DNA of 64,000 nt from Escherichia phage phiSUSP1, in sequence record KT454805; one strand, given 5' to 3'. This document shows positions 3,869 through 64,000 of this stretch, piece by piece. The notes beneath the pieces were generated by a model. It ran no database searches, was not told the origin of the DNA, and was given only the letters and a program-made list of their open reading frames with translations. The first letter of the stretch is position 1, and every line of letters begins with the position of its first letter. The position numbers were made by a program, and so were the translations under genes.

Positions 3869-4053
3869 TACATCTCCTTGCTCTTATCTAAGAATCTTGC
3901 ACCGCAGCTATTACATTCATATAAACCTAATTTTGTGTTGTCAGGTTTATGAAAGCAATTACACCCACATTTGCAAGAGAACTCACCACCAGCTACTGTG
4001 ATTATGAACGTCTCAATGTTTCCGTCTTCAGTTCTTACAGGTTCTGTTTTCAT
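3868..4053 (-). CDS. small Zn-ribbon protein
   Basis: CKCGCNC...CNSC cysteine clusters; 61 aa. Confidence 0.4.
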   Translation of the reverse strand: MKTEPVRTEDGNIETFIITVAGGEFSCKCGCNCFHKPDNTKLGLYECNSCGARFLDKSKEM

Positions 4054-4256
4054 TTTCTCTTACCACCAATTTCTACATCAATAACCTGAACATCACCAGC
4101 AACATCAAACTTGTGAATGACATTTTCTACAGTGTAAGTCCAACCTTCAATATGAACCCATTCACCTTCTCGTGGTACGATTGGATTACGTTGAGCCACC
4201 GTTGTAGTAGAATGAACAACATCATAACGGTAGATATAGTTTACTAAAACTTGCAT
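4050..4256 (-). CDS. hypothetical small protein
   Basis: 68-aa ORF, 4-nt overlap with neighbour. Confidence 0.35.
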   Translation of the reverse strand: MQVLVNYIYRYDVVHSTTTVAQRNPIVPREGEWVHIEGWTYTVENVIHKFDVAGDVQVIDVEIGGKRK

Positions 4257-21163: not shown

Positions 21164-23305
21164 ATGGTTAAAGTACAAGTTATTAAGAAAGATGGTTCAC
21201 TAGAAAAACCAAATGTAAATAAAATCGTTGAAGCAGTCACCAAGTCAGCTAATAGAGTTGGGTACAAAGAACTACCAATAGAAGTTATCCATGCTCTTGA
21301 GTCAGCTTTTAACAGACTGCTTGCCAGAGCAACTAATCAGAATGCAATGCTAATCTCTGTAGATGACATTCATAGCATCGTTGAAGGGACTCTGGCAGAG
21401 GTGAACCATGAAATCTATGAGTCATATTCAACATACAGAAACTACCGTAAAGAGGTGGCTCAGAATTGGGATGAACTATATCAGAAGACTAAAGACACAC
21501 TCTTCTTAGGTGACCGTGAGAATGCTAACTTTGACAGTAGCTTAATCTCCACAAAAGGCTCAATCATCCGTGGTTACCTGACAAAAGAAATCTTTAAGCA
21601 GTACCACTTAACACCAGAAGAAACAAGTGCTATTGAAGATGGATTCATTTATATCCATGACTTAAGAGATTTAATCTTCGGTGGTATTAACTGCTGCTTG
21701 TTTGACATTGGAAGTGTCCTGAAAGGTGGCTTTGAAATGTCCGGCATCGAATACTGTGAACCTAAGTCTGTGCTATCAGCTTTACAGGTTATCGGTGATG
21801 TTGTACTCTCAGCAACTGCACAGCAGTTTGGAGGGTTCACTATTCCAGAGATTGATAAGGTTCTTGTGCCATATGCTAAGAAGTCTTTTGAGTATCATCT
21901 GGAAAAAGCAAAGCAATATAATATCCCAGGCAAGGGAGCATACTACTACGCTAAAGAGCAACTCCAGATTGAACTAACTCAGGGATTCCAATCACTGGAA
22001 ATGAAGCTGAACACTGTTCCTTGTAGCCGTGGGGACTTTGCATTCACAACATTAACATTTGGTTTACTTGAACCAGATATGGCTAGTGAAGATAACCGTT
22101 TGCAATTTATGATTGCTAAGACTATCCTAGATGTTAGGATGAATGGTCAAGGTAAATCTAAGAAGCCTGTTGTGTTTCCTAAGCTGGTTTATATCTATGA
22201 TGAAACAAGACATATACTAGACCCTTGGCAGGGGCAGCTTTATGATAAAGCTATTGAGTGTTGTTCTAAAGCTATGTATCCAGACTTCTTAAGCGTGTCT
22301 GGTAGTGGTTCTGTTGCAGAGGCTTTTGAACGTTCAGGTGCAGTCATCTCTCCAATGGGTTGCAGGGCTTTCTTATCTCCTTATTACGATGATGAAGGTA
22401 AAGAGTTCTATACAGGTCGAGCAAACATTGGTGCAGTATCTCTTAATCTGCCGATGATTTACAAGTATTCTGAAGAGAATGACTTAGACTTTTGGAAAGA
22501 ACTTGACAAGTATCTTGAGATGATTAGAAGCTTCCACAAGAAGCGCTATGAGATGATTGCTAATATGCCAGCAAGTTCTAACCCTCTTGCATTCACTCAA
22601 GGTGGATTGTATAAAGGTCATAAGAAGCCAACTGATAAGATTGGTTGGGATACTGTGAAATCTTTTACAGCATCTTTTGGTGTAACTGCATTAGATGAGT
22701 TAACAGTGCTTGCCCAAGGTAAAAGGTTGCATGAATCTGATGGTGATATTGCAAGTAAGGTTTTAAGCTACCTGAATAGCAAGCTGGAGCAGTTTAAGCA
22801 GGAAGATGGTTTCTTGTATGCCCTCTATGGTACACCTGCTGAGAGCCTTTGTGGTACGCAATTGAAGCAGTTCAGAAATATGTTCGGAGTTGTTAAAGGT
22901 GTTTCTGATAAAGAATACTTTACAAATAGTTTTCACATGAATGTTGGTGCAGATATCACACCGTTTGAAAAGCAAGACTTAGAAGAACCTTTCTTCCATT
23001 CTTGTAATGGAGGCCATATCCAGTATGTTCGTATCGCTAACCCAGAGAACCACAAAGCCATTAGAGCTTGTGTAACAAGGGGTATGGGTAAAGGTTTCTA
23101 TCAAGGTGTTAACTTTGATTTAGCAATCTGTGAAAATTGTGGTCACCGTCCAAGTGCAGATGTTGAATTATGTCCTAAGTGCAACTCACACGATATCTCT
23201 GTGATTAATAGGGTGTGTGGTTATCTTTCGTTCACTAAGATTAAAGGACAGTCTCGAATGAACGATGCAAAAATTGCCGAGATTAAGGATAGAAAGTCTA
23301 TGTAA
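21164..23305 (+). CDS. nrdD: anaerobic ribonucleoside-triphosphate reductase
   Basis: C-terminal glycyl-radical motif RVCGYLS and Cys4 zinc site (CENCGH...CPKCNSH); start moved to ATG 21164 after terminator. Confidence 0.85.
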   Translation: MVKVQVIKKDGSLEKPNVNKIVEAVTKSANRVGYKELPIEVIHALESAFNRLLARATNQNAMLISVDDIHSIVEGTLAEVNHEIYESYSTYRNYRKEVAQNWDELYQKTKDTLFLGDRENANFDSSLISTKGSIIRGYLTKEIFKQYHLTPEETSAIEDGFIYIHDLRDLIFGGINCCLFDIGSVLKGGFEMSGIEYCEPKSVLSALQVIGDVVLSATAQQFGGFTIPEIDKVLVPYAKKSFEYHLEKAKQYNIPGKGAYYYAKEQLQIELTQGFQSLEMKLNTVPCSRGDFAFTTLTFGLLEPDMASEDNRLQFMIAKTILDVRMNGQGKSKKPVVFPKLVYIYDETRHILDPWQGQLYDKAIECCSKAMYPDFLSVSGSGSVAEAFERSGAVISPMGCRAFLSPYYDDEGKEFYTGRANIGAVSLNLPMIYKYSEENDLDFWKELDKYLEMIRSFHKKRYEMIANMPASSNPLAFTQGGLYKGHKKPTDKIGWDTVKSFTASFGVTALDELTVLAQGKRLHESDGDIASKVLSYLNSKLEQFKQEDGFLYALYGTPAESLCGTQLKQFRNMFGVVKGVSDKEYFTNSFHMNVGADITPFEKQDLEEPFFHSCNGGHIQYVRIANPENHKAIRACVTRGMGKGFYQGVNFDLAICENCGHRPSADVELCPKCNSHDISVINRVCGYLSFTKIKGQSRMNDAKIAEIKDRKSM

Positions 23306-25803: not shown

Positions 25804-26319
25804 ATGTACTATTCAAATCTAAAACATGCTGCTGCAATGTCTGTTCTTCGTCTTGATTTCGATGAGCGTCAAGAGTTCATTGAATCCCACAAGTATAATC
25901 CTTCAAATTCTAATCACATGGTACTTTGGAACCGTGGTAAGTTCCGTGACAGTACCCTGTTTCAATACTATCCCCACTATACCATTGATAACCTCTATGA
26001 ATATTGTGTTGTCAAGAACACTATAGCAACTCTTAACAAGCTTTGTAGATACTCTGGGAAGAAAGCTTTCACATTAGGCCACCATAAGCCTGTGACAAAA
26101 GGTGGAGAACATCATTGCTCAAACTGGTTTATTCAGACACAAGAAGATAATCAGAAGCAAGGTGAGAAGCTTCCTGAGACTCCTAAGATGACTTGGGAAG
26201 AACAAAAAGCATATCTCAGAAATAATATGCCACCAATGCTTGACAAGGACTATTCAATTCTGGCAATATCTCTCTTGTTGAAGCTTGAGACAGTTTATGA
26301 GGCAACTTATCATGGCTAG
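25804..26319 (+). CDS. HNH-motif nuclease-like protein
   Basis: LGHHKPVTKGGEHHCSNWFIQTQEDNQKQG resembles HNH His-Me finger. Confidence 0.4.
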   Translation: MYYSNLKHAAAMSVLRLDFDERQEFIESHKYNPSNSNHMVLWNRGKFRDSTLFQYYPHYTIDNLYEYCVVKNTIATLNKLCRYSGKKAFTLGHHKPVTKGGEHHCSNWFIQTQEDNQKQGEKLPETPKMTWEEQKAYLRNNMPPMLDKDYSILAISLLLKLETVYEATYHG

Positions 26320-26600
26320 AGAACAATGGGAAATCAAAGAACTCATTAGTGAAGCTGGAAATGGTAGTGAGATGTATATGATACGTGGTCACGTCCCAGA
26401 TGCACTTGCTATTGAAATGATTGACCACTACTCCAACGGATTCTATAAAGAATTTGGAGAGCCAAATATTGAACGTACTTGGACAAAACCAGTACCAGAT
26501 GGAACAGGGAACTGTTCAGTTATCTATCACATTGTAGACCCAAAGAAATGTAAGTCAGCTATGGCTGTAACATTTGTAACTTTTGACTGAGAGAAATATT

Positions 26601-27482
26601 ATGAAAACTATTATTCAAGTCCTGATTAATTCAAACTCTAAAGGCACTCACCAAGAGAACTTCAACATTATCCAGTTCCCTTCAGGAGAAATTGGTGGTA
26701 ACTTCTCAGAAGATTTGGTAGACTTTGTTGAACATGCTGCTGGTAAGATTGATAACGTAATCTTCACGGTACAAGGCTATGATAAAGATACACTCTTTGC
26801 ATTAGCTCTGGCTAAAGAAGCAATTGACCGTATGATTCCTCAGAAAGCAGCTATGAAGACTGTTGTCTTTGGTTTCTTACCAAATGCTAGATATGACCGT
26901 CACATGTTTAAAGGTGATGCAGCAGCACTTAAAGCATTTGCAAATCTTGTAAACGCTATGGAGTTTGATGCAATTTGTGCTCTGGATGCTCATAGTAACG
27001 TGGCAGAGAATCTATTTAAGTGCTTCTACAACCTACCTCAAAAAGAGGCAGCAGTACACTTTGCAAGTGACCCACGAATTGATTACTTAGTGGCTCCAGA
27101 TGCAGGTGCAGCTAAGAAGACTGAAGAAGCTGCTAAGGATGTTGAGAAGCCTTATATCACAATGGCTAAGGTGCGTAACCTGAAAACTGGTGAAATCACT
27201 GGTATGCGAATCCTTGATGACGTAGATTTAACAGGCAAGACTGTCATGATTCTGGATGATATCTGTGACGGTGGTCGTACCTTCATTGAGGCTGCAAAGT
27301 ATCTTCGTGAAGCTGGTGCAGAACGTGTAGAACTGTATGTCACTCATGGGATTTTCTCTAAAGGTGTTGAAAATCTTCTTGACAACGGTATTGACCATAT
27401 CTACACTACAAACTCACTAGGCGATGTAGAAGACCGTGGACTTTCACACTTCTCACAAGTGACTGTAGCAAACATTGAATAG
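26601..27482 (+). CDS. ribose-phosphate pyrophosphokinase family protein (Prs-like; candidate ADP-ribose pyrophosphokinase)
   Basis: VVFGFLPNARYDR resembles Prs AVIPYFGYARQDR; PRPP-binding loop TVMILDDICDGGRT resembles CVLVDDMIDTGGT; THGIFS resembles THPIFS. Confidence 0.85.
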   Translation: MKTIIQVLINSNSKGTHQENFNIIQFPSGEIGGNFSEDLVDFVEHAAGKIDNVIFTVQGYDKDTLFALALAKEAIDRMIPQKAAMKTVVFGFLPNARYDRHMFKGDAAALKAFANLVNAMEFDAICALDAHSNVAENLFKCFYNLPQKEAAVHFASDPRIDYLVAPDAGAAKKTEEAAKDVEKPYITMAKVRNLKTGEITGMRILDDVDLTGKTVMILDDICDGGRTFIEAAKYLREAGAERVELYVTHGIFSKGVENLLDNGIDHIYTTNSLGDVEDRGLSHFSQVTVANIE

Positions 27483-56266: not shown

Positions 56267-57682
56267 ATGAGCGATTTATTTAAACATTCGCACCTCCATG
56301 CAGGGCGAACTGAAAATGGTGCTGTTAACCATACATCATCAATGTCTGCCTTGGTAGACTTCTATAAAGCTGCTGGCTCAAGCCGTGGCAATGTAGAGAT
56401 TCTCCCAGACTTGTTCTACAAAGCTTTGCGTGAGGATGTTGATGTAGCAGTTCGTATTTTACTGCATATGCGAGATGTACGAGAAGGTATGGGTGAGCGT
56501 AAAGCTTTCCGAACTGTCCTCTTACAAGCAATCGAAGATAACATTCTGGATTCTTTCCAAGTTCTTCGTATCATGGATAAGATTTCTGAATTAGGTCGTT
56601 TCGATGACTTCAAAATCTTCGTAGGTACTCGTTATGAGACAGATGCTTTCAAGCATTTAGAAGCAGCCTTGTTAGACCCTGATACAGCAGGTTTAGCAGC
56701 TAAGTGGTTACCACGAGTAAAACCACGCCACAAAAAGTTTGTAAAACGTTTCTGTAAGTTTGCAAACTTGAGTGAGAAAGAATACCGTACACTGTTATCA
56801 GCTTTGTCTGATACCGTTGAACAGAAAATCTCTACAAATAACTTTGGTGAGATTGACTACAGCAAGATTCCTTCACTGGCTGCTGCACGTTACCAAAAAC
56901 TGTTCAGCAAGAAAGACGGTGAACGTTATACAGCTTACGTTGAAGCTTTATCCAAAGGTGAGGCCAAGATTAATGCTGGTGCTGTGTACCCATACGATAT
57001 TCTGAAGTCCGTTAATCATGGTAAAGCAAGTGTTGCAAACGAACAGTGGAAAGCATTACCAAACTGGATGGCAGAAGGTGAAAACATTCTGTGCATGTCA
57101 GATGTATCAGCGTCTATGACTTGGCAGACATTTGGTTCTGTAACTGCTCTTGATATTGGCCTGTCTTTGGCGTTATATGTCTCAGAACGCAATACAGGGT
57201 GCTTTAAAGATGAGTTAATGGTTTACTCCACAAGACCTCACTTTATCACTCTGAGTGGTGATTTACAGACTCGTATGCGTCAAGTAATGAGTCATGTTGA
57301 GTATGGTTCAACAAACCTGCAAGCAGCATTTGACCGTATTCTTGAAATTGGTGTAAGAAATGGCTTGACTCAGGTAGCAATGCCAAGTAAGCTTATTATC
57401 TTCTCTGATATGGAGTTCAATCAGGTTGACGGTGCAAATGGTTGTACAAACTTCGAAGCAATTCGTAGTAAGTACGAAAAAGCTGGATACGAAATGCCAC
57501 AACTGGTATTCTGGTACTTAGCAAACCGTAATGGTACTTGCGAAGTGTCTGTTAAGGATAATGGTGTAGCAATGGTATCAGGTTTCTCTCCAGCCACTTT
57601 AAAAGCTCTGCTTGGTGGTGAGAAGTTTGACCCAATCAGCGTAATGCTCAAAGCAGTAATGATTGACCGTTACATCTGGTAA
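56267..57682 (+). CDS. Ro60-like protein (TROVE-like N-domain plus vWA domain with MIDAS)
   Basis: AVYPYDILKSVNHG, CMSDVSASM, LIIFSDMEFN, VSGFSPATLKAL align with human Ro60 RIHPFHILIALETY, AVDVSASM, FIVFTDNETF, MCGFDTGALDVI. Confidence 0.7.
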   Translation: MSDLFKHSHLHAGRTENGAVNHTSSMSALVDFYKAAGSSRGNVEILPDLFYKALREDVDVAVRILLHMRDVREGMGERKAFRTVLLQAIEDNILDSFQVLRIMDKISELGRFDDFKIFVGTRYETDAFKHLEAALLDPDTAGLAAKWLPRVKPRHKKFVKRFCKFANLSEKEYRTLLSALSDTVEQKISTNNFGEIDYSKIPSLAAARYQKLFSKKDGERYTAYVEALSKGEAKINAGAVYPYDILKSVNHGKASVANEQWKALPNWMAEGENILCMSDVSASMTWQTFGSVTALDIGLSLALYVSERNTGCFKDELMVYSTRPHFITLSGDLQTRMRQVMSHVEYGSTNLQAAFDRILEIGVRNGLTQVAMPSKLIIFSDMEFNQVDGANGCTNFEAIRSKYEKAGYEMPQLVFWYLANRNGTCEVSVKDNGVAMVSGFSPATLKALLGGEKFDPISVMLKAVMIDRYIW

Positions 57683-57699
57683 AAAGTTTTAAAAAGGGT

Positions 57700-57728
57700 A
57701 TTGACAATCTGCTCGATACCCTTTAATA
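57700..57728 (+). promoter_or_regulatory. sigma70-like promoter for tRNA cluster
   Basis: TTGACA-N17-TAATAT; -35 flanked by inverted repeat AAGGGTAT...ATACCCTT. Confidence 0.6.
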
Positions 57729-57848
57729 TGTTCTACATAGAAACGAAATCGAGAGTTTTTCTAAGATACTGAAAAATATTTTAAAAAAGTTCTTGACAAC
57801 CACTAAAAAATAATGTTAAAGTGGTTACATAGAGTTTGAAAAGATTAT

Positions 57849-57925
57849 CTCCGTTTAGCTCAGTTTGGTAGAGTGCGCCGTTTGGGGCGGTGAGGTCGAA
57901 GGTTCAATCCCTTCAACGGAGACCA
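57849..57925 (+). tRNA. tRNA-Pro (anticodon TGG)
   Basis: acceptor CTCCGTT/AACGGAG, T-arm GGTTCAATCC, loop TTTGGGG; CCA encoded. Confidence 0.75.
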
Positions 57926-57932
57926 AATTAAT

Positions 57933-58010
57933 GTTCCAGTAGACAAATTGGTAAAGTCACCACACTTTCAATGTGGAGTTTTGAGGGTTCAAGTCCCTTC
58001 TGGAACGCCA
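57933..58010 (+). tRNA. tRNA-Glu (anticodon TTC)
   Basis: acceptor GTTCCAG/CTGGAAC, T-arm GAGGGTTCAAGTCCCTT, loop CTTTCAA. Confidence 0.75.
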
Positions 58011-58017
58011 AATTTGA

Positions 58018-58082
58018 CAGAAGACCAAGTACAGCAAATAACTTTACTTTTCGCGCATAGAAAACTTAAAAGTTTGGTCTGG
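58018..58082 (+). ncRNA. inverted-repeat-bounded inter-tRNA element E1
   Basis: CAGAAGACCAA...TTGGTCTGG, 7-bp closing stem AGACCAA/TTGGTCT. Confidence 0.4.
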
Positions 58083-58093
58083 TCATAAAAGTT

Positions 58094-58170
58094 CGCGGGT
58101 ATAGAGAAAGGGCGTCTCACATGTCTCATTAGCATGGTATCGGCAGGTTCGACTCCTGCACCCGCCTCCA
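58094..58170 (+). tRNA. tRNA-Met/Ile2 (anticodon CAT)
   Basis: T-arm GCAGGTTCGACTCCTGC, loop CTCATTA, 3' ACCCGCC-T-CCA; 5' boundary uncertain. Confidence 0.6.
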
Positions 58171-58176
58171 AATTTG

Positions 58177-58239
58177 CAGAAGACCGTTTACAGCAATCTC
58201 AAAAATTTTTATCGGAAAAAATGAAAAGATACGGTCTGG
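58177..58239 (+). ncRNA. inverted-repeat-bounded inter-tRNA element E2
   Basis: CAGAAGACCGT...ACGGTCTGG, 7-bp closing stem. Confidence 0.4.
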
Positions 58240-58252
58240 CAATACTAAACAT

Positions 58253-58329
58253 GGTGAGGAAGCACATAAGGCATGTGCGGTCGGCTGTTAACCGAATGGT
58301 ATAGGGTTCGAATCCCTAACTCACCGCCA
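58253..58329 (+). tRNA. tRNA-Asn (anticodon GTT)
   Basis: D-arm GCAC-ATAAGGCAT-GTGC, loop CTGTTAA, T-arm TAGGGTTCGAATCCCTA, CCA encoded. Confidence 0.75.
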
Positions 58330-58399
58330 AGATTTGGGAGAGAAGCGTAATGCTCACCGATTTGTAAGGTGTAAGTCCTTAGCCTGAATAGAATAAAAT

Positions 58400-58487
58400 G
58401 CGTCGTTATCCCGTAGATGGAAGCGGTGGTGACTGTAAATCACTTGTCATTATGACTCGGTAGGTTCGACTCCTTCACGGCGCACCA
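58400..58487 (+). tRNA. tRNA-Tyr (anticodon GTA), class II
   Basis: 88 nt with long variable arm; loop CTGTAAA; acceptor GCGTCGT/ACGGCGC. Confidence 0.7.
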
Positions 58488-58493
58488 AATAAA

Positions 58494-58571
58494 GGTTATG
58501 TAGTTTAATCTGGTTAAAATACCTCACTGTCACTGAGGAAGATGAGGGTTCAAATCCCTTCGTAACCGCCA
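58494..58571 (+). tRNA. tRNA-Asp (anticodon GTC)
   Basis: anticodon arm CCTCA-CTGTCAC-TGAGG; T-arm GAGGGTTCAAATCCCTT. Confidence 0.75.
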
Positions 58572-58632
58572 ATTTTGAGAGGGCTTTCTAGCCCCTCCCT
58601 TAAAGAGTTCTTACGAGTATTCTTTAAAGGAG

Positions 58633-58709
58633 CAGAAGACCAAATTCAGCAAGCCAACTTAAAAAATTTCAAGCCAATTTAATTTTGAAAAATTTAAAAC
58701 TTGGTCTGG
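58633..58709 (+). ncRNA. inverted-repeat-bounded inter-tRNA element E3
   Basis: CAGAAGACCAA...TTGGTCTGG closing stem. Confidence 0.4.
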
Positions 58710-58722
58710 CTCAACAAATTTA

Positions 58723-58849
58723 CAGAAGACCGTTTACAGCAAGTATAAAACAATCTATTTCTCTGGTAAAGAAAAGGAGAAGGTTCGATTCCTTCACACG
58801 TTACGGCGTGTTGGTGTAATGGTAGCACTTAAGATAAACAACGGTCTGG
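58723..58849 (+). ncRNA. structured element E4 with tRNA-like T-arm (Y-RNA-like candidate)
   Basis: closing stem AGACCGT/ACGGTCT; internal hairpins GAAGG-TTCGATT-CCTTC (T-arm-like), ACACG-TTACGG-CGTGT, GTGT-AATGGTA-GCAC (D-arm-like); no anticodon arm. Confidence 0.4.
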
Positions 58850-58998
58850 TAATCCTCTTTGCAGTGACTTATGGAGCTAAATGTCGTCCCATGAGTGCCG
58901 ATGAATTTCCTTAGCATGATTCTAGATTAGCTTAATAGGAAATGACTCTACAAACCCTTTAGCAAGGTTTGCGTAGGTTACTGCAAAGATGATTTAAT

Positions 58999-59074
58999 GG
59001 GGGTGTAGCAGAAAGGTGATGCGGCAGACTTTTAATCTGACAGGCGACGGGTTCGAATCCCTCCACTCCCACCA
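58999..59074 (+). tRNA. tRNA-Lys (anticodon TTT)
   Basis: acceptor GGGGGTG/CACTCCC, loop CTTTTAA, T-arm GACGGGTTCGAATCCC. Confidence 0.7.
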
Positions 59075-59078
59075 ATAT

Positions 59079-59155
59079 GGTTCAGTCGCAGATAAGGTAA
59101 TGCAAGGGTTTCATAAGCCCTATGAATGTGGGTTCGAATCCCATCTGAACCTCCA
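59079..59155 (+). tRNA. tRNA-Met/Ile2 (anticodon CAT), second copy
   Basis: acceptor GGTTCAG/CTGAACC, loop TTCATAA, T-arm GTGGGTTCGAATCCCAT. Confidence 0.7.
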
Positions 59156-59156
59156 A

Positions 59157-59232
59157 GCTGGTATAGTTAAGAAGGTTATAACACTCCCCTGATAAGGGAA
59201 CATCGGTGGTTCGATTCCACCTACCAGTACCA
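59157..59232 (+). tRNA. tRNA-Ile (anticodon GAT)
   Basis: loop CTGATAA, T-arm GGTGGTTCGATTCCACC, acceptor GCTGGTA/TACCAGT. Confidence 0.7.
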
Positions 59233-59247
59233 ATTTCAATAAAGTTG

Positions 59248-59276
59248 TTGACATGGAGATGTGACTACTTTATAGT
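59248..59276 (+). promoter_or_regulatory. sigma70-like promoter inside tRNA cluster
   Basis: TTGACA-N17-TATAGT. Confidence 0.6.
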
Positions 59277-59509
59277 AGCCTTAGTTTTCGTTAGCGTAGC
59301 GTCTATTTTGCAAACTTAAAAATAAATGCAAACGATAATGCTTTTCTGGCAGTAGCTTAATAGGCTAAACACCAGTGAGGTCTTCCAATTCCTCATCAAA
59401 GAATTTGGCGTACTCGCCCACGGTATGATTAATAAGGTGGGCAACATTCTAAAGGGTATCCCGTATGGGGCTTGGCTTAAATGCAATGAGTACCCTTTAA
59501 AATGTTAAT

Positions 59510-59586
59510 GCACCCTTAGTTCAATTGGATAGAGCAAGTGCCTTCTAAGCACTGAGTTACAGGTTCGAGTCCTGTAGGGTGTGCCA
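59510..59586 (+). tRNA. tRNA-Arg (anticodon TCT)
   Basis: anticodon arm AGTGC-CTTCTAA-GCACT, T-arm ACAGGTTCGAGTCCTGT. Confidence 0.75.
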
Positions 59587-59593
59587 GTTTAAT

Positions 59594-59715
59594 GGTCAAG
59601 ACAACACTAGTAAGCCATCTGGATACATGTTAACAGATGTACGAAAGTCGGAAAGTTGCTGAAGGTTAGCTACCTTCGAGAGTAAGTAGGTTCGACTCCT
59701 ACCTTGACTGCCAAA
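59594..59715 (+). ncRNA. atypical tRNA-like element (possible pseudogene or insertion-containing tRNA)
   Basis: perfect T-arm GTAGG-TTCGACT-CCTAC and 3' CTTGACT-G-CCA pairing with GGTCAAG ~120 nt upstream; no canonical D-arm. Confidence 0.3.
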
Positions 59716-59849
59716 TAGTTAGCAGATTACTTAGACGACCTTAGCGGGTCTCCGTGTTGATTCAGATGAGTCAACTTCATAAGGAGGTGGTCTGTATCTC
59801 ATGTTTTCCAGAACATGTAAATAATCTGAGAAGAGGCTTGACAGTGTTG

Positions 59850-59878
59850 TGACAATACGGTAAGCTTCGAATTATAGT
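59850..59878 (+). promoter_or_regulatory. sigma70-like promoter
   Basis: TGACAA-N17-TATAGT upstream of tRNA-Trp and HNH gene. Confidence 0.5.
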
Positions 59879-59884
59879 GTTAAT

Positions 59885-59955
59885 AGGGGTGAGCTAAGGC
59901 AGCAATAGAGTCTCCAAAATTCTTGATTAGAGTTCGAATCTCTACACCCCTGCCA
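59885..59955 (+). tRNA. tRNA-Trp (anticodon CCA), short D-arm
   Basis: acceptor AGGGGTG/CACCCCT, loop CTCCAAA, T-arm TAGAGTTCGAATCTCTA; 71 nt. Confidence 0.6.
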
Positions 59956-59969
59956 GAATAGGTACTTGT

Positions 59970-60374
59970 ATGAAACTTTGTAGAAAATGCTCACAAGAAA
60001 AACCTTTAAGTTGTTTTCATAAGCGTGGTAATGGATACCAGTCAGTATGCAAAGATTGCAAATCCAAATACTCTTCTAAGAAGTATCAAGAAGACCCAAC
60101 TTATAAAGCTAAAAGGAAAATTAGGGCGGTAGCTGACAGAAAAAGAAACAGAGAGTTTCTTAACCGATACAAAAGAATCTGCAAATGCAGAGTTTGTGGT
60201 GAATCTGAACCAGTAGCATTAGACTTCCACCATTTAGACCCAAATGAAAAAGACTTTGAACCTAGCAATTTAAAGACTTACTCTAGAGGGACTATTAAGA
60301 GAGAAGTTAGAAAATGTGTTGTACTGTGTTCTAACTGTCATAGGAAAGTTCATGCAGGACTGTTAGAGGTTTAA
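59970..60374 (+). CDS. HNH endonuclease inside tRNA cluster
   Basis: Cys pairs CRKC...CKDC...CRVC and DFHHLDPN...LCSNCHRKVH HNH motif. Confidence 0.7.
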   Translation: MKLCRKCSQEKPLSCFHKRGNGYQSVCKDCKSKYSSKKYQEDPTYKAKRKIRAVADRKRNREFLNRYKRICKCRVCGESEPVALDFHHLDPNEKDFEPSNLKTYSRGTIKREVRKCVVLCSNCHRKVHAGLLEV

Positions 60375-60388
60375 CAGTCTTATTAGGG

Positions 60389-60475
60389 GTAGATAGCGGC
60401 TAATGGAAGCCAAATTGTCTTGAAAACAATTGCCATTGTAGTGATACGGTGAGGGTTCGACTCCTTTATCTACCG
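60389..60475 (+). tRNA. tRNA-Ser (anticodon TGA), class II
   Basis: 87 nt with long variable arm; anticodon arm ATTGT-CTTGAAA-ACAAT; CCA not encoded. Confidence 0.65.
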
Positions 60476-60628
60476 CCTAATGAGATTTAAGCCCACGCTC
60501 TGGTACAGCGTTCGGTTTCCCTCGTGTATTGTCGTACACGCACAACAAAGCACCTAGTAGGTGTCACGGAGAAGAGATAATATCAAGCTCTCCAAAGGTT
60601 CTAGTCACCGGATTAAACAAGACTATGC

Positions 60629-60648
60629 AAAGACCAGTTAGGTCTTTT
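60629..60648 (+). terminator. rho-independent terminator
   Basis: AAGACC-AGTTA-GGTCTT followed by TTT; ends a ~150-nt structured non-tRNA segment. Confidence 0.5.
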
Positions 60649-60718
60649 TAGAGAATTGTTAAGGCATTTGATACCATTGTTGCTTTGGCGTCTTAGCAGT
60701 TCTCTACAAAGATTTAAT

Positions 60719-60796
60719 GGGAGATTGACGGTAATTGGTAAACCTACCATCCTTAGAAGTTGGTGTTTGAGGGTTCGAATCCCTTGTCTCCTACCA
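60719..60796 (+). tRNA. tRNA with anticodon read as TAG, class I
   Basis: acceptor GGGAGAT/GTCTCCT-A-CCA, T-arm GAGGGTTCGAATCCCTT; anticodon arm CCATC-CTTAGAA-GTTGG is a 1-nt variant of the Val tRNA arm. Confidence 0.5.
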
Positions 60797-60803
60797 AATT
60801 AAT

Positions 60804-60879
60804 GCAGGTGTAGCAAAATGGTTATGCGGCTGACTCTTAATCAGTAAGACGATGGGTTCAATTCCCTCCACCTGTACCA
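60804..60879 (+). tRNA. tRNA-Lys (anticodon CTT)
   Basis: paralog of tRNA-Lys(TTT); loop CTCTTAA with compensatory stem change. Confidence 0.6.
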
Positions 60880-60885
60880 AATATT

Positions 60886-60961
60886 GGGGTTGTAGTTTAA
60901 ATGGTTAAAACATAAGTTTTGCAAACTTAAGTACAGGGTTCGATTCCCTGCTTCTCCACCA
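60886..60961 (+). tRNA. tRNA-Cys-like (anticodon GCA), imperfect acceptor stem
   Basis: anticodon arm AAGTT-TTGCAAA-AACTT, T-arm CAGGGTTCGATTCCCTG; two U-U mismatches in acceptor; possible pseudogene. Confidence 0.4.
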
Positions 60962-60967
60962 ATTAGT

Positions 60968-61042
60968 GCATCCATAGTTTAAACGGGAAAATTACAGTCT
61001 TCCAAACTGAGGTTGAGGGTTCGATTCCCTCTGGATGCTCCA
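60968..61042 (+). tRNA. tRNA-Gly (anticodon TCC)
   Basis: acceptor GCATCCA/TGGATGC perfect; loop CTTCCAA. Confidence 0.75.
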
Positions 61043-61049
61043 AATTAAT

Positions 61050-61125
61050 GCTCCTATCGTATAATTGGCTATTACGGTTGCCTTGTAAGCAACTTATCAG
61101 GGTTCGAATCCTTGTGGGAGCACCA
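61050..61125 (+). tRNA. tRNA-Thr (anticodon TGT)
   Basis: anticodon arm GTTGC-CTTGTAA-GCAAC; acceptor GCTCCTA/TGGGAGC. Confidence 0.75.
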
Positions 61126-61221
61126 ATTCAGAGGTCGAGTGAAAGACCGCTTGAGTCAACTGAAGACCGTAACAAATTCCACGGAGTTGAGTTAGCGGCA
61201 CAACTTCAGACCTCTTTTCAT

Positions 61222-61296
61222 ACTCGCTTAGTTTATACGGTAAAGCCCCATCCTTACAAGTTGGTGAAGAAGGTTCAAGTCCTTCAGCGAGTACCA
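61222..61296 (+). tRNA. tRNA-Val (anticodon TAC)
   Basis: loop CTTACAA as in E. coli tRNA-Val; acceptor ACTCGCT/AGCGAGT; T-arm GAAGGTTCAAGTCCTTC. Confidence 0.7.
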
Positions 61297-61298
61297 AT

Positions 61299-61376
61299 GT
61301 TCCAGTATCCCAATTGGCAGAGGATGCAAGCTCAAACCTTGTATTAGTGACGGTTCGAATCCGTCTTGGAACACCA
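61299..61376 (+). tRNA. tRNA with anticodon read as CAA, class I
   Basis: acceptor GTTCCAG/TTGGAAC-A-CCA; anticodon arm GCAAG-CTCAAAC-CTTGT; T-arm GACGGTTCGAATCCGTC. Confidence 0.5.
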
Positions 61377-61392
61377 ATTTTAGGAGATTCCT

Positions 61393-61605
61393 ATGAAGCC
61401 TTATGGTAGACACGGTAAAGTTGAAATTGCAAGTTGTGGTTGCTGTGCTTCTCACGATGGTGAAGAAGATTACTACAAGTGGCGTACAGACCATCGTAGA
61501 CGCTTTCTCAGAAGAGATAAGAAGAGAGCTAGACAGGAATCTCAAAAGAACATTGCAGAATTAGTTCAAATGGATAGAGCAGCAGCCTACGAAGTTGCTT
61601 GTTAG
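61393..61605 (+). CDS. small basic Cys-containing protein; 3' end overlaps tRNA-Arg
   Basis: AGGAG RBS 7 nt before ATG; 70 aa; last ~50 nt overlap tRNA 61555-61631. Confidence 0.25.
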   Translation: MKPYGRHGKVEIASCGCCASHDGEEDYYKWRTDHRRRFLRRDKKRARQESQKNIAELVQMDRAAAYEVAC

Positions 61606-61631
61606 GGGTTCGAATCCCTTATTCTGCACCA
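61555..61631 (+). tRNA. tRNA-Arg (anticodon ACG)
   Basis: acceptor GCAGAAT/ATTCTGC perfect; anticodon arm GCAGC-CTACGAA-GTTGC. Confidence 0.7.
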
Positions 61632-61650
61632 ATTTAAAGAGGCTATTTAA

Positions 61651-62208
61651 ATGAGATATTTGAAGTATGCTTCATGGATTTTCCTAGCTTTGCTAGAGCC
61701 ATTTGCAGCAATCTTAGCAGTAATCTTAGCACCCTTTGTGGTTCCATTCTACAGTGAGAGGAAAGGTCACTTACCTTTTGGATTCAGATGGATGGAAACT
61801 TATGATAACCCGATTGACGGTGACAAAGGTCACGTTGAGCGATGGGCTAAGATTCGAAAGATTGGTAAGCTCGGTGTTTATATGCAGAGAGTTGGATGGC
61901 TCTGGAGAAACAAAGCTTATAACTTCTCTTACCATGTATTAGGAAGAGATGTAAAAGATGTTACTAAGTGGAAAGGTAATATCAACGTAAGTTCTAACCC
62001 TGAAGATAAACAGACAGGTTATCTCCTGATGTGGAACAGTAATGCTTGGGGTTTATTCGCTTTTATCCCGTCAATTAAAATCTTTGGTAAACAATTTTAC
62101 TGGAGAATTTATGTTGGTTGGAAACTTAAAAGTGTTGTCCCAGAAGAAAGAGCATTTTCAAGGGAAAGAATTATGTTGGCATTCTTTATTCATCCACTAA
62201 GAAAGTAA
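61651..62208 (+). CDS. hypothetical protein with N-terminal hydrophobic helix
   Basis: AAGAGG RBS; WIFLALLEPFAAILAVILAPFVV; 185 aa inside tRNA cluster. Confidence 0.4.
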   Translation: MRYLKYASWIFLALLEPFAAILAVILAPFVVPFYSERKGHLPFGFRWMETYDNPIDGDKGHVERWAKIRKIGKLGVYMQRVGWLWRNKAYNFSYHVLGRDVKDVTKWKGNINVSSNPEDKQTGYLLMWNSNAWGLFAFIPSIKIFGKQFYWRIYVGWKLKSVVPEERAFSRERIMLAFFIHPLRK

Positions 62209-62216
62209 AGATTTAA

Positions 62217-62292
62217 AGGGGATTAGTTTACAAGGTTAAAACCTCGGTCTTTGAAATCGAAGAAGTTGGTTCAATTCCAACATCCCCCGCCA
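62217..62292 (+). tRNA. tRNA-Gln (anticodon TTG)
   Basis: anticodon arm TCGGT-CTTTGAA-ATCGA; T-arm GTTGGTTCAATTCCAAC; A1-C72 mismatch. Confidence 0.65.
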
Positions 62293-62294
62293 AT

Positions 62295-62373
62295 GCTCCA
62301 TTACTCCAATTGGCAGAGAGGCCAGACTTAAAATCTGTGTTATGTATCGGTTCGAATCCGATATGGAGTACCA
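62295..62373 (+). tRNA. tRNA with anticodon read as TAA
   Basis: acceptor GCTCCAT/ATGGAGT-A-CCA; loop CTTAAAA in a Lys-tRNA-like arm; 7-nt variable loop. Confidence 0.5.
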
Positions 62374-62380
62374 AATTAAT

Positions 62381-62456
62381 AGCAGTGTAGCATAACTGGC
62401 AATGCTCCAGCCTCTGAAGCTGAAAGATTAAGGTTCAAATCCTTACGCTGCTGCCA
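62381..62456 (+). tRNA. tRNA-Gln (anticodon CTG)
   Basis: anticodon arm CAGC-CTCTGAA-GCTG; T-arm TAAGGTTCAAATCCTTA. Confidence 0.65.
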
Positions 62457-62487
62457 CTTCTAAGGGTTCTTACGAGAGTCCTTACAT

Positions 62488-62564
62488 GTGTCCTTATCAT
62501 AAATGGATAATGACCCATGCTGTGAACATGGTCTATACGGGTTCGATTCCCGTAGGTCACCCCA
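62488..62564 (+). tRNA. tRNA-His (anticodon GTG)
   Basis: D-arm TCAT-AAATGGATA-ATGA, anticodon arm CCATG-CTGTGAA-CATGG, discriminator C73. Confidence 0.7.
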
Positions 62565-62572
62565 AATTTAAT

Positions 62573-62648
62573 GGGTTAAGTAGCTTATATGGTTAAAGCG
62601 CGTGTCTGAAAAACATGAGAAGAGGGTTCAAATCCCACTAACCCGCCA
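62573..62648 (+). tRNA. tRNA-Phe (anticodon GAA)
   Basis: anticodon arm CGTGT-CTGAAAA-ACATG; acceptor GGGTTAA/CTAACCC. Confidence 0.6.
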
Positions 62649-62665
62649 ATTTCAAAAGGTGCTTA

Positions 62666-63400
62666 ATGAAAGAGATGACAGAACAAGGTAAAGAGATTTT
62701 TAATCTCCTGAAATCCGGTAACGGGTTTTCTAACCCTCTTATTACTGGTGCAGCAATCCTTGGTGGCACAATTGCCGCTTCTACTTCATTAGTAAGCTCT
62801 ATTAGCTCGGTATCAGACCCTACAGTAAAAGATAAACTTATTGCTGCTGGTTTGACTACAGCCTTGTTAAGTAGCTTCTCAACGAGCCTTGGAAGCACTA
62901 CAACGACAACTAACACTTTGACTCAATACGGGCAGAAGTCTGTAGATGAGTTCTCATCACGTATGCAGGTAGCTAAAGGTTACTCTAACGTTATGGGTGC
63001 AGCAGGAGAACAAGTTGGTTGTACACCGTTTAGTGGAATCATGGGAGTAGCTACAGAGTACGGTCAAAAAGCTATGGATTTGATTAACACCTCCATAGAC
63101 ACTGTGAATGGCGTTCTAAGTGATTTGCAAGATGCAATCAACAAAGGACTAGATACTATATCTCCCTTAGCCTCACAAGCCGTTACAGCGATTAATCAGG
63201 GCATTGCTAAGATTACTGCATATGCTAATGAGGTCACTCAGATGATTGCAGATGAAGCAGCGTTAATTGCTGATTACTTGAAAACGAATATCAATGGTTT
63301 CCTTGCAGGTATCTTACCAGACTGGTTTGATGATGCTTGTAAAACTGGCGTGATTGATTCAATCGCAACTCCAGAGATGAAGGATGCCTTGAATAAATAA
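62666..63400 (+). CDS. hypothetical Ser/Thr/Ala-rich protein
   Basis: 244-aa ORF between tRNA-Phe and tRNA-Ser. Confidence 0.4.
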   Translation: MKEMTEQGKEIFNLLKSGNGFSNPLITGAAILGGTIAASTSLVSSISSVSDPTVKDKLIAAGLTTALLSSFSTSLGSTTTTTNTLTQYGQKSVDEFSSRMQVAKGYSNVMGAAGEQVGCTPFSGIMGVATEYGQKAMDLINTSIDTVNGVLSDLQDAINKGLDTISPLASQAVTAINQGIAKITAYANEVTQMIADEAALIADYLKTNINGFLAGILPDWFDDACKTGVIDSIATPEMKDALNK

Positions 63401-63402
63401 TT

Positions 63403-63495
63403 GGAAGATTAACCCTAAAAGGTAAGGGAACAGTTTGCTAAACTGTCAGTAACCGAGAAATCGGCGTACCAGTTCAAGTCTGGTATCTTCCTCCA
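63403..63495 (+). tRNA. tRNA-Ser (anticodon GCT), class II
   Basis: 93 nt; acceptor GGAAGAT/ATCTTCC perfect; anticodon arm ACAGT-TTGCTAA-ACTGT; long variable arm. Confidence 0.75.
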
Positions 63496-63503
63496 ATTTA
63501 ATG

Positions 63504-63578
63504 CGTCGATGACAGAAATGGCTATGTGCCTGTCTGCAAAACAGGATTATGAGGGTTCGACTCCCTTTCGACGCTCCA
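63504..63578 (+). tRNA. tRNA-Cys (anticodon GCA)
   Basis: acceptor GCGTCGA/TCGACGC perfect; anticodon arm CCTGT-CTGCAAA-ACAGG. Confidence 0.75.
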
Positions 63579-63612
63579 AATTATTTTACTCTCTCTCAAA
63601 ATAAAATAATAA

Positions 63613-63673
63613 CGCCCTGCTACGAGTATTCTTCCTTTCGCTACCGAAGAGTATTTTTAGACAGGGCTTTTTT
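63613..63673 (+). terminator. rho-independent terminator closing the tRNA operon
   Basis: CGCCCTG...CAGGGC followed by TTTTTT. Confidence 0.55.
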
Positions 63674-63738
63674 ACAGATGTATACTTTATAAGAAGACTT
63701 ATACAGTATGTCTCTGGCATACATTGTGGTTTCTCCTT

Positions 63739-63766
63739 GACGGTCTCTGCGCCGTCTTTTTTCAGG
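63739..63766 (+). terminator. second rho-independent terminator
   Basis: GACGG-TCTCTGCG-CCGTC followed by TTTTTT. Confidence 0.55.
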
Positions 63767-63799
63767 AGAACCATTCACTTATTATTTTGGAGAAATACA

Positions 63800-64000
63800 A
63801 TGAACGAGACTAATGTTTACAAAGAACTTTATGAAGCAAACAAAAGAGCCGAACTGTTGCAGAACACTATTATCAGTGTTGCTCACCGTCTGGCTAATGC
63901 AACTGGTAAGGACATTAAAGAAACCAATATGGATGAACTGTTAGACGCAGTTGATGCAAAGTTTGGTGTTAAGGCTGCCGAAGAAGTTGCTGCTGAATAA
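63800..64000 (+). CDS. hypothetical small protein
   Basis: GGAGAAA RBS then ATG 63800; 66 aa; stop at window end. Confidence 0.4.
   Translation: MNETNVYKELYEANKRAELLQNTIISVAHRLANATGKDIKETNMDELLDAVDAKFGVKAAEEVAAE

Follow-up and report, generated by a model that had tools for sequence, protein, structure and literature searches.

Candidate Y-RNA-like small RNAs with a common terminal handle beside genes of predicted Ro60-fold DUF2828 proteins in Escherichia phage phiSUSP1 and distant phages

Introduction

The Ro60 protein and its Y RNAs form a conserved and poorly understood RNA-surveillance system. The subject of the present work is a set of four elements, E1 to E4, which lie among the tRNA genes of Escherichia phage phiSUSP1 in a stretch of 64,000 nucleotides (nt) of the sequence record KT454805, referred to here as the window. 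The elements stand downstream of a gene coding for a protein with DUF2828 and DUF7788 domains. We regard it as rather probable that E1-E4 are small non-coding RNA genes whose products are Y-RNA-like partners of this upstream protein, for which a Ro60 fold is predicted.

The bacterial Y RNA YrlA carries the Ro60-binding stem motif GNCGAAN(0-1)G and is found within about 4 kb of the Ro60 orthologue, on the same strand (PMC4201824). Thermus phage phiLo codes for a recognisable Ro60 homologue, phiRo60, with the adjacent bound small RNAs Yrl1 and Yrl2, which are chosen by a CGAA internal-bulge motif (PMC12135203). The gp130 protein of phage Bas63 is reported to be structurally homologous to Ro60 and to counteract the Ppl defence; the presence of Y RNAs among the tRNAs was surmised in the same work (10.1101/2024.10.10.617714). 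In a multi-omics study of Listeria phage CKA15, published in 2025, the highest read coverage of the genome fell on three non-coding regions at most 2 kb upstream of CKA15_055, on the same strand, and these transcripts were proposed as possible Y RNAs; the best HHpred match of CKA15_055 was Rsr, and the protein was detected in purified virions (PMC12282133).

Outside the viruses, the Class I RNAs, described as peculiar to Dictyostelia, have a length of about 60 nt, start with AAG and end with CUGU. In their 6-bp terminal stem, which is variable yet compensated, the invariant 5' G is paired to the C of CUGU; beside the 5' strand lies an 11-nt motif of the consensus CCUUACAGCAA, and the interior is variable. 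Their direct binder is the RRM protein CIBP/Rnp1A, and a DUSE promoter is located about 60 nt upstream (PMC7919456).

Results and Discussion

Four elements with a common handle lie among the tRNA genes

The ends of each element are joined by a short helix with fixed neighbouring nucleotides, which is called the handle in the following. The elements and the handle strands of E4 are:

58018..58082, plus strand: E1, candidate short-form handle RNA, cagAAG-ACCAAG-UACAGCAA ... interior ... UUUGGU-CUGG
58177..58239, plus strand: E2, candidate short-form handle RNA, cagAAG-ACCGUU-UACAGCAA ... UACGGU-CUGG
58633..58709, plus strand: E3, candidate short-form handle RNA with an AU-rich interior hairpin; signature and partner strand present
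58723..58849, plus strand: E4, candidate long-form handle RNA around a circularly permuted tRNA-like body; signature, partner strand and hairpins present
58727..58742, plus strand: 5' strand of the E4 handle, AGACCGUU, followed by the single-stranded motif UACAGCAA
58840..58849, plus strand: 3' strand of the E4 handle, AACGGUCU, with a GG tail

Twenty-five tRNA genes were called by ARAGORN in a plus-strand array between 57849 and 63578, and the open reading frame (ORF) of the 471-aa DUF2828 protein (56267-57682) is located directly 5' of this array. E1-E4 are found 336-1167 nt downstream of the DUF2828 gene, on the plus strand, and share the start CAGAAGACCnnnUnCAGCAA and the end GGUCUGG. A preliminary description of the window, made from its letters, had placed four inter-tRNA elements with closing helices here, and the count agrees with it: the 20-nt pattern CAGAAGACCNNNTNCAGCAA, searched with at most two mismatches, gave four matches in the 64 kb, all of them free of mismatches, while 0.07 were expected from shuffled sequences. 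Each match has a downstream partner strand making 6-7 of the 7 possible pairs, followed by CUGG. A looser form of the 5' signature was seen elsewhere in the window at 56850 (plus strand) and 59671 (minus strand), in neither case with a partner.

The handle consists of a 7-bp helix joining the two ends, in which an A-U and a G-C pair are followed by five pairs of free sequence. After the 5' strand come one nucleotide and a single-stranded U-(A/U)-C-(A/C)-G-C-A-A segment (UWCMGCAA); beyond the 3' strand there is a G(N) tail. At the inner helix pairs the four paralogues have either AA/UU or GU/AC. The interiors are of two kinds, a short AU-rich hairpin in E1-E3, which have no tRNA-like module, and a permuted tRNA-like body in E4.

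The earlier statement that the elements are not tRNAs is in line with the ARAGORN results, which contained no tRNA call on any of E1-E4, and E4 gives a cloverleaf only after the artificial un-permutation described below. In Rfam scans all four elements remained below the gathering thresholds. Since the scans of the window and of 11 distant loci at gathering score matched only tRNAs and one group I intron, no curated Rfam family covers the elements.

The handle is kept in close relatives

The window phage is a Felixounavirus-type myophage, the closest record being Escherichia phage SUSP2 with 96.7% identity across 57600-59300. Close relatives were represented by 25 IMG/VR loci in which the protein is 86-98% identical to that of the window; Bas63 was added separately. 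Exactly four elements were found at orthologous positions in all 25 loci and in Bas63. The handle is nearly invariant in these phages and the interiors diverge, that of E1 being of two unrelated types. The changes that do occur in the stems remain compatible with pairing if G-U pairs are allowed (AGGCC with GGUCU, AGACCGA with UUGGUCU). Covariation across related phages, which the preliminary description had proposed to look for, was seen in the closing helices and in the acceptor-like hairpin of E4.

In Bas63 the elements occupy 82068-82140, 82235-82298, 82690-82763 and 82777-82908 of MZ501086; they are absent from the annotated tRNAs and lie in unannotated gaps or under the minus-strand ORFs bas63_0137 and bas63_0138. 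These two ORFs overlap E3/E4 and E5, a further structured segment described below (22749-23023 of our locus L187, which is 82748-83022 of Bas63, MZ501086), and are probably mis-annotations. Any knockout data for bas63_0137 and bas63_0138 would report on the RNAs. In one metagenome-assembled contig (L011, 7457-7620) the 3' half of E4, the whole of E5 and the 5' part of tRNA-Lys are deleted, apparently because the T arms of E4 and of the tRNA recombined; at least in this contig, therefore, these parts are dispensable.

The handle accompanies DUF2828 genes in distant phages

The distant set comprised 75 IMG/VR viral loci (868 kb) with a DUF2828 protein 38-48% identical to that of the window, fetched via the homologue alignment. 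An initial fuzzy search beside these genes returned the recurrent pattern '...AAG......U.CAGCAA'. An explicit descriptor was used together with strand, shuffle and swapped-window controls: its 5' signature was AG, six nucleotides and U-N-C-(A/C/U)-GCAA, and the full form added a variable interior, the complement and CUG.

The 5' signature alone was found 95 times on the strand of the gene and 9 times on the opposite strand, the mean of dinucleotide shuffles being 9.05. Of the 95 signatures, 79% had a partner strand within 30-270 nt that made six or seven of the seven pairs and ended C-UG, as against 8.8% on random windows, and perfect partners were present for 24% as against 0.8% in the controls. 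Within 600 nt of the DUF2828 gene, on either side of it, lay 55 of the 75 paired elements, and at least one element was present in 42 of the 75 loci. The spacing is fixed: with six nucleotides the descriptor gave 95 signatures and 75 partners, with five or seven only 20-29 signatures and 1-2 partners. A comparable strand bias was seen in GTDB contigs (32 signatures on the strand of the gene, 4 on the opposite one), mostly in loci of 38-42% identity and rarely in the Clostridia-type ones. Taken over all the other phages with the signature, the neighbouring DUF2828 genes show 30-48% identity to that of the window.

When 108 distinct handles were compared, the five variable positions were paired in 95-100% of them, with all four Watson-Crick types represented, and the eighth position was mostly unpaired; the counts were made on fixed-length 5' and 3' end fragments preselected to have no fewer than 6 of the 7 pairs, which by construction inflates the paired percentage, and the selection-free test is given by the 95-versus-9 strand and partner counts. 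In the same 108 handles 281 cells were altered on both sides, compared with 93.5 in shuffles, and sliding the partner by one column lowered the pairing from 92.6% to about 40%.

Elements were also found in loci of 7-13 kb in which ARAGORN detected no tRNA gene, for example L036, L040, L045, L047, L053, L057, L058, L063, L070, L075, L077, L081, L083 and L086. The link is therefore to the protein gene and not to the tRNAs. In the annotated loci the DUF2828 gene was the sole constant neighbour seen.

The neighbouring protein has a predicted Ro60 fold

56267..57682, plus strand: gene of the 471-aa DUF2828 and DUF7788 protein, the proposed partner (Pfam, PHROG 850, predicted Ro60 fold)

Pfam recognised only DUF2828 and DUF7788 on the window protein, and PHROG 850, to which it belongs, bears the label 'RNA-binding protein'. 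An AlphaFold2 model calculated with 38 homologues reached a predicted local distance difference test value (pLDDT) of 88 and a predicted template modelling score (pTM) of 0.88. When this model was compared with the PDB by Foldseek, the top 10 matches were all Ro60 proteins, aligned over the full length with E values of 5e-9 to 6e-7 and template modelling (TM) scores up to 0.66; among them were Xenopus and human Ro60, the Ro60 of Thermus phage phiLo (9kop, 9l5y) and Deinococcus Rsr. Isolated vWA domains ranked far behind the Ro60 structures. The MIDAS residues D279, S281, S283, T349 and D381 are invariant across the 38 homologues. As modelled, the protein is of the Ro60 fold, a HEAT-repeat ring with a C-terminal vWA domain and an intact MIDAS motif. 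The Ro60-like gene which the preliminary description had named as a neighbour is thus confirmed at the level of the predicted fold, not by sequence.

The window protein is 89% identical to gp130 of Bas63 (MZ501086). A DUF2828 gene occurred in 702 of the 50,697 phage records searched, phages of Mycobacterium, Vibrio, Listeria, Staphylococcus, Campylobacter, Enterococcus and Bacillus included, and DUF2828 proteins are also present among mimivirus-like and plant sequences.

E4 encloses a circularly permuted tRNA-like body

The hairpins inside E4 are, in order:

58758..58774, plus strand: anticodon-arm-like hairpin UUUCU-CUGGUAA-AGAAA (Rfam tRNA model; stem kept in relatives)
58779..58795, plus strand: T-arm-like hairpin GAAGG-UUCGAUU-CCUUC (YrlA alignment; covariation in long forms)
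58796..58811, plus strand: acceptor-stem-like hairpin ACACG-UUACGG-CGUGU (compensatory change in relatives; covariation across phages)
58814..58828, plus strand: D-arm-like hairpin GUGU-AAUGGUA-GCAC with the D-loop GG (YrlA alignment; un-permutation)

The last three had been noticed before, and they align to positions 25-83 of the Rfam YrlA model as T arm, acceptor-like stem-loop and D arm (20.6 bits). The accompanying claim that E4 has no anticodon arm proved to be wrong. Positions 9-63 of the Rfam tRNA model (RF00005) align to E4 at 58742-58795 with 28.8 bits, just short of the threshold of 29, and the hairpin at 58758-58774 takes the place of the anticodon arm in this alignment. E4 was also un-permuted in silico by cutting it at the loop of the acceptor-like hairpin and re-joining it at the junction of the D arm and the anticodon arm, with two artificial base pairs added; ARAGORN then called a tRNA-Thr(GGU) cloverleaf. 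On the strength of the anticodon-like arm and of this cloverleaf, E4 holds a complete circularly permuted tRNA-like body within its handle. In relatives the acceptor-like hairpin changes from ACACG/CGUGU to ACUCG/CGAGU, which is compensatory.

The interiors are exchangeable modules

In the distant phages the short forms cluster at 47-70 nt (about 60 nt) and the long forms, with a T arm, an acceptor-like hairpin and a D arm, at 95-130 nt. Long forms from other loci scored 39.2, 38.9, 28.7, 25.2 and 39.7 bits with the Rfam YrlA model (E about 2e-5 to 5e-5 for the best three); the matches are limited to the tRNA-like core, and the outer YrlA stems were flagged as non-pairing. An alignment of 13 long forms contained 20 consensus pairs, 16 of which are kept via changes on both sides.

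Other handles surround a tRNA in normal order (L048 5734-5834, L054 5764-5860, L078 8520-8616), called by ARAGORN or Rfam as tRNA-Thr, tRNA-Asn(AUU) or tRNA. Judged by their sequences, these tRNAs look like tRNAs tethered to a presumed protein-binding module. Structured inserts of 150-250 nt were present in handles of L033, L050, L063, L081, L086, L096, L098 and L104. Such a constant end module with exchangeable interiors amounts to a Y-RNA-type architecture.

The recurrent handle inserts of 210-250 nt fall into two classes. The first is represented by L063 5652-5898, L081 5653-5900 and L086 1891-2142, with L096 5625-5869, L098 5435-5674 and L104 1069-1299 in the same list, and the other list contains L033 2843-3061, L037 628-834, L050 5409-5660 and L060 5066-5319. 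No Rfam family matched these inserts at threshold in the subset of loci searched at gathering score. The group I intron mentioned above (71.5 bits) is situated at 11696-11922 of a distant DUF2828-bearing phage contig, L046.

Cultured phages and published transcripts

Handle elements were also located in cultured phages. In Klebsiella phage KP13-16 the gene is followed, just 3' of it, by a promoter-like site, two short forms, three long forms and tRNAs. Mycobacterium phage Faith1, in which the protein is annotated as 'Ro-like RNA binding protein', has a tRNA-like element between two short ones, with a terminator-like hairpin on either side of the three, and in its handle the otherwise invariant first pair A-U is flipped to U-A (UG...CAG). 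One element is found by the DUF2828 gene of Campylobacter phage Los1, and three directly upstream of this gene in Listeria P100-like phages. The genome of Listeria phage LMTA-94 holds an RtcB-type tRNA-splicing ligase gene 1.3 kb downstream of its DUF2828 gene (L192 5307-6455), a neighbourhood that recalls the Salmonella rsr-yrlA-rtcBA RNA-repair operon.

In CKA15 three handle elements occupy the unannotated gap directly upstream of CKA15_055, behind a TTGACA...TATCAT promoter-like site. The same phage has a non-coding stretch of about 490 nt at 26,236-26,727 (L196 1446-1937), its most abundant transcript (PMC12282133), which lies behind a TTGACA...TATAGT site and is a different RNA adjoining the same gene cluster.

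Comparison with known small RNAs

YrlA (RF02553), like the window elements, is coded beside a Ro60-type gene on the same strand and combines a terminal stem, the presumed site of protein binding, with a T arm, a looped acceptor stem and a D arm. The order of T arm, acceptor-like stem-loop and D arm recurs in E4 (58779-58828) with no non-canonical pairs. The partner here, however, is a DUF2828/DUF7788 protein and not a TROVE protein, and is Ro60-like by predicted fold only; E4 has an anticodon-like arm which YrlA lacks, and most handle RNAs (E1-E3 and the short forms) have no tRNA-like part. With phiLo the window shares a phage Ro60-fold protein next to small RNA genes, but the handle differs, as does the ease with which the Ro60 homology is recognised. 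The metazoan and Deinococcus Y RNAs resemble the handle RNAs in that their paired ends bear the protein site, a variable loop recruits factors and the partner is a HEAT-ring and vWA protein; the handle, on the other hand, has no sequence similarity to their conserved bulged helix, and its binding is here inferred. The tRNA cluster of phage T4, too, yields small stable non-tRNA RNAs, species 1 and 2, which are co-transcribed with the tRNAs. We know of no link between these T4 species and a Ro60-like gene.

A further likeness was met outside bacteria and their phages. The Rfam family of the Class I RNAs (RF01414) was the only non-tRNA family that repeatedly touched the short forms. Both kinds of RNA have a length of about 60 nt, an AAG start, a CUG(U) end, a G-C closing pair, a compensated stem of free sequence and a variable interior rich in A and U; in the handle RNAs the motif (U)UACAGCAA adjoins the 5' strand of the stem. 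The phage family thus has the variable compensated stem with the flanks of the Class I RNAs, AAG/CUGU, which read AAG ... CUGG in the window. With the 11-nt motif 8-9 of the 3'-terminal nucleotides are common (UUACAGCAA in E2 and E4, U-W-C-M-G-C-A-A in the family), the linker being one nucleotide longer in the amoebal RNAs than in the phage ones. In handle and architecture the likeness is close, this nucleotide and the Rfam scores below threshold being the sole differences noted. The RF01414 consensus GaUcuC-CUUACAGCAA ... GagAuC-UG aligns end to end with the short forms. E1 scored 17 bits, E2 26.9 bits with an E value of 0.0032 for a search of 241 nt, and the elements of relatives 19.7-24.4 bits; the matches outside the window were L088 7937-7991 and 7387-7445, L083 3960-4017 and KP13-16 4032-4094 and 4121-4171. 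All 7 of the 7 sub-threshold matches in about 120 kb fell on independently predicted short forms and none elsewhere. The Class I genes, however, are eukaryotic nuclear genes with a DUSE, whereas the phage elements have sigma-70-like promoter candidates.

These results allow a proposal which we consider tentative and, on balance, doubtful: the AAG-stem-(U)UACAGCAA ... CUG handle could be a recognition element of viral and eukaryotic DUF2828-type Ro60 paralogues, with the Dictyostelium Class I RNAs as eukaryotic members of the group. On this proposal the candidate partner would be DDB_G0281243, the protein pulled down with DdR-21. A full-text literature search for DDB_G0281243 returned one preprint only, which labels the protein 'unknown', and in the literature searched no paper joined Class I RNAs with Y RNAs or Ro60.

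Weighing of the interpretations

The handle RNAs are most likely a branch of the Y RNA family that has a new handle and partners divergent Ro60-fold proteins. Binding of E1-E4 by the protein, processing of the RNAs and a role in RNA surveillance, repair or anti-defence are what we infer from this reading. The handle would serve as the docking site for the Ro60-like ring; its helix, fixed in length, would set the distance, like a ruler, from the AAG/CUG end to the UWCMGCAA segment, both of which would be recognised. The interior would work as an effector or as a decoy: in the manner of Ro60/Y RNA particles, this module could gate the protein or link it to other factors, for instance tRNA-recognising enzymes or nucleases.

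Several observations weigh against a Y-RNA-like partnership. The protein-RNA contact is argued from linkage and analogy. On the protein side, Pfam made no TROVE assignment, finding only the two DUF domains on the window protein, and no Ro60 came up among the PDB chain sequences, whether the query was the protein itself or a profile of 38 sequences. On the RNA side, the terminal stems of E1-E4 have UWCMGCAA instead of the GNCGAA motif of YrlA; E4 reaches 20.6 bits and the other long forms at most 39.7 bits with the YrlA model, the gathering score of which is 69, and the 17-27 bits of the phage elements with the Class I model compare with a gathering score of 41.5. No strict match was found in 33 of the 75 distant loci and in most Clostridia-type loci, so either the partnership is not universal or the handle varies further. 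The only region of CKA15 with published coordinates, 26,236-26,727, is the stretch without a handle. Finally, gp130 alone, on a plasmid or in T7, restores plaquing on the Ppl host (10.1101/2024.10.10.617714). The RNAs are accordingly dispensable for the Ppl phenotype, and may regulate the protein or have another task, for example in tRNA surveillance or as a decoy.

This last result would also suit the alternative that survives best, which we nevertheless judge improbable. The handle could be a maturation or stability signal for a host ribonuclease or RNA chaperone, the DUF2828 protein being merely a co-regulated neighbour and gp130 countering Ppl without the RNAs. The polycistronic contexts, beside tRNAs or behind strong promoter-like sites, fit this explanation, as do the conserved nucleotides placed exactly at the predicted RNA ends (AAG ... 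CUG). The hosts, however, span Mycobacterium, Listeria, Escherichia, Campylobacter and Vibrio, and because they are so diverse a single conserved host factor is unlikely. Moreover, the DUF2828 gene is the sole constant neighbour, with 55 of the 75 elements at most 600 nt away on the same strand.

That proximity to the gene could also mean that the elements are cis-acting operators in the untranslated regions of the DUF2828 or tRNA transcripts rather than free-standing RNAs, by which the protein, a ribosome or an RNase would regulate the operon: many copies are immediately upstream (35) or downstream (39) of the gene, some only 20-60 nt from the start codon (L033, L039, L046). This we hold to be decidedly unlikely. 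Operators would not be expected as several tandem copies per locus with differing interiors on either side of the gene; the window elements are parted from the gene by tRNAs, the long forms hold complete tRNA-like bodies, and in Faith1 the elements have terminator-like hairpins on both sides, the first of which separates them from the gene.

The alignment of E4 and the other long forms to the tRNA-like core of YrlA, near a Ro60-like gene on the same strand, might suggest that the elements are just divergent ordinary YrlA RNAs. We give this explanation very little weight in view of the scores of 20.6-39.7 bits set against 69, the non-pairing outer stems and a handle motif unlike GNCGAA; besides, a tRNA-like module is present in only one of the four window elements.

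The Y-RNA-like reading was one of three offered in the preliminary description, and it is the one that found support, in the predicted Ro60 fold, the travelling signature and the YrlA-type module. The other two, tRNA-processing sites and remnants of a mobile element, did not. For processing punctuation, or for decayed tRNA genes that have lost their function, speak the position between tRNA genes, the tRNA-like arms of E4, which un-permuted read as tRNA-Thr(GGU), and the loss of the 3' half of E4 in L011 by T-arm recombination. The explanation is scarcely tenable, since the same elements stand beside DUF2828 genes in loci without any ARAGORN tRNA call, which contradicts it; decay, for its part, would not maintain base pairing through compensatory changes in phages whose hosts are distant, nor the handle while the interiors drift. 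Four copies with short inverted termini in 850 bp could recall the remnants of a mobile element of the miniature inverted-repeat type that had multiplied among the tRNA genes, but this idea is next to negligible and was rejected, as the 'inverted repeat' is 7-8 bp long and varies between copies (ACCAA and ACCGU) with compensatory changes, only the handle is common and the interiors are unrelated, the orientation follows the gene strand (95 against 9), number and orthologous positions are fixed in 26 related genomes, and the 64-kb window has no further copies.

Other features of the tRNA array

Three promoter-like sites were noted in the region:

57701..57729, plus strand: sigma-70-like promoter candidate TTGACA-17-TAATAT upstream of the tRNA/RNA array (consensus match only)
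57793..57822, plus strand: second sigma-70-like promoter candidate, TTGACA-18-TAAAGT with TG (consensus match only)
59248-59276, plus strand: third promoter-like site, the best of the region (11 of 12 consensus matches)

No terminator-like site was found on the plus strand between the sites at 57701 and 57793 and the one at 59248, which points to a single precursor for the RNAs of the array. E1-E4 would probably be excised from this polycistronic tRNA transcript begun at the 57701 and 57793 sites.

The preliminary description had mentioned a further closed segment 3' of E4, and this is real. E5, as it is called here, is a segment of about 135 nt (58856-58990, plus strand) closed by CUUUGCAGU/ACUGCAAAG, with a fold z of -3.99, a compensated stem and no handle. 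In relatives its spacer measures 147-151 nt and is of two sequence types, both of which are closed by a 19-bp stem in which 3-4 pairs are compensatory; inside it lies a hairpin whose loop is UUAGCAAG/UAAGCAAG. No Rfam match to E5 was obtained in a scan of 57600-64000 at E <= 10. E5 is a candidate fifth structured RNA. A hairpin with the loop GUUCUUACGAG, likewise reported earlier as recurring, occurs exactly twice, on the plus strand at 58597-58630 (loop at 58607) and 62462-62485 (loop at 62466). Of the 25 related loci, all have the first hairpin and most have the second; a compensatory stem pair was seen in the first (AAAGA...UCUUU, AAAGG...CCUUU).

Two genes were missed by ARAGORN, a tRNA-Tyr-like gene at 58402-58482 (plus strand; Rfam 22.8 bits), annotated as tRNA-Tyr or pseudo-tRNA in relatives, and a tRNA at 59885-59952 (plus strand; Rfam 32.6 bits). 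The unannotated spacer 59233-59509 (plus strand) opens with the promoter-like site at 59248-59276 and gave weak matches to permuted tmRNA (59174-59360, 30.8 bits, E = 0.002) and tmRNA (59317-59369). Another unannotated spacer, 59587-59710 (plus strand), closes with a T-arm and acceptor-like ...GGUUCGACUCCUACCUUGACUGCCA and resembles a tRNA with a long insertion. Within the array there is an HNH endonuclease ORF (PHROG 2255; 59970-60374, plus strand), followed on its 3' side by a tRNA-Ser and a 240-nt unannotated spacer (60480-60718). The spacer between tRNA-Thr and tRNA-Val (61126-61221, plus strand) contains CUGAAGACCGUAACAAAUUCC, similar to the start of E2 and E4, without the ACAGCAA motif or a partner; going by this similarity, it may be a decayed fifth copy.

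Implications

In the papers found the handle RNAs are undescribed, and no Rfam family covers them at threshold; the Y-RNA-like kind of RNA is itself known. A second and much larger phage branch of the Ro60/Y RNA system seems to have gone unnoticed, because its protein was filed as a 'domain of unknown function'. The papers on Bas63 gp130 and CKA15 guessed that such RNAs exist without locating them, and a simple handle descriptor now pinpoints them as a modular set of plain forms, tRNA mimics, whole tRNA-like inserts and forms of 150-250 nt.

The Class I RNAs are abundant and developmentally regulated; if the tentative proposal about them were true, a protein of the DUF2828 family would have them as its Y RNAs. 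Should the match reflect common ancestry or a common kind of partner, a 20-year-old question on those RNAs becomes testable. In the phages, the handle gives mutational targets for the role that a Ro60-like particle may have in anti-defence or in tRNA quality control.

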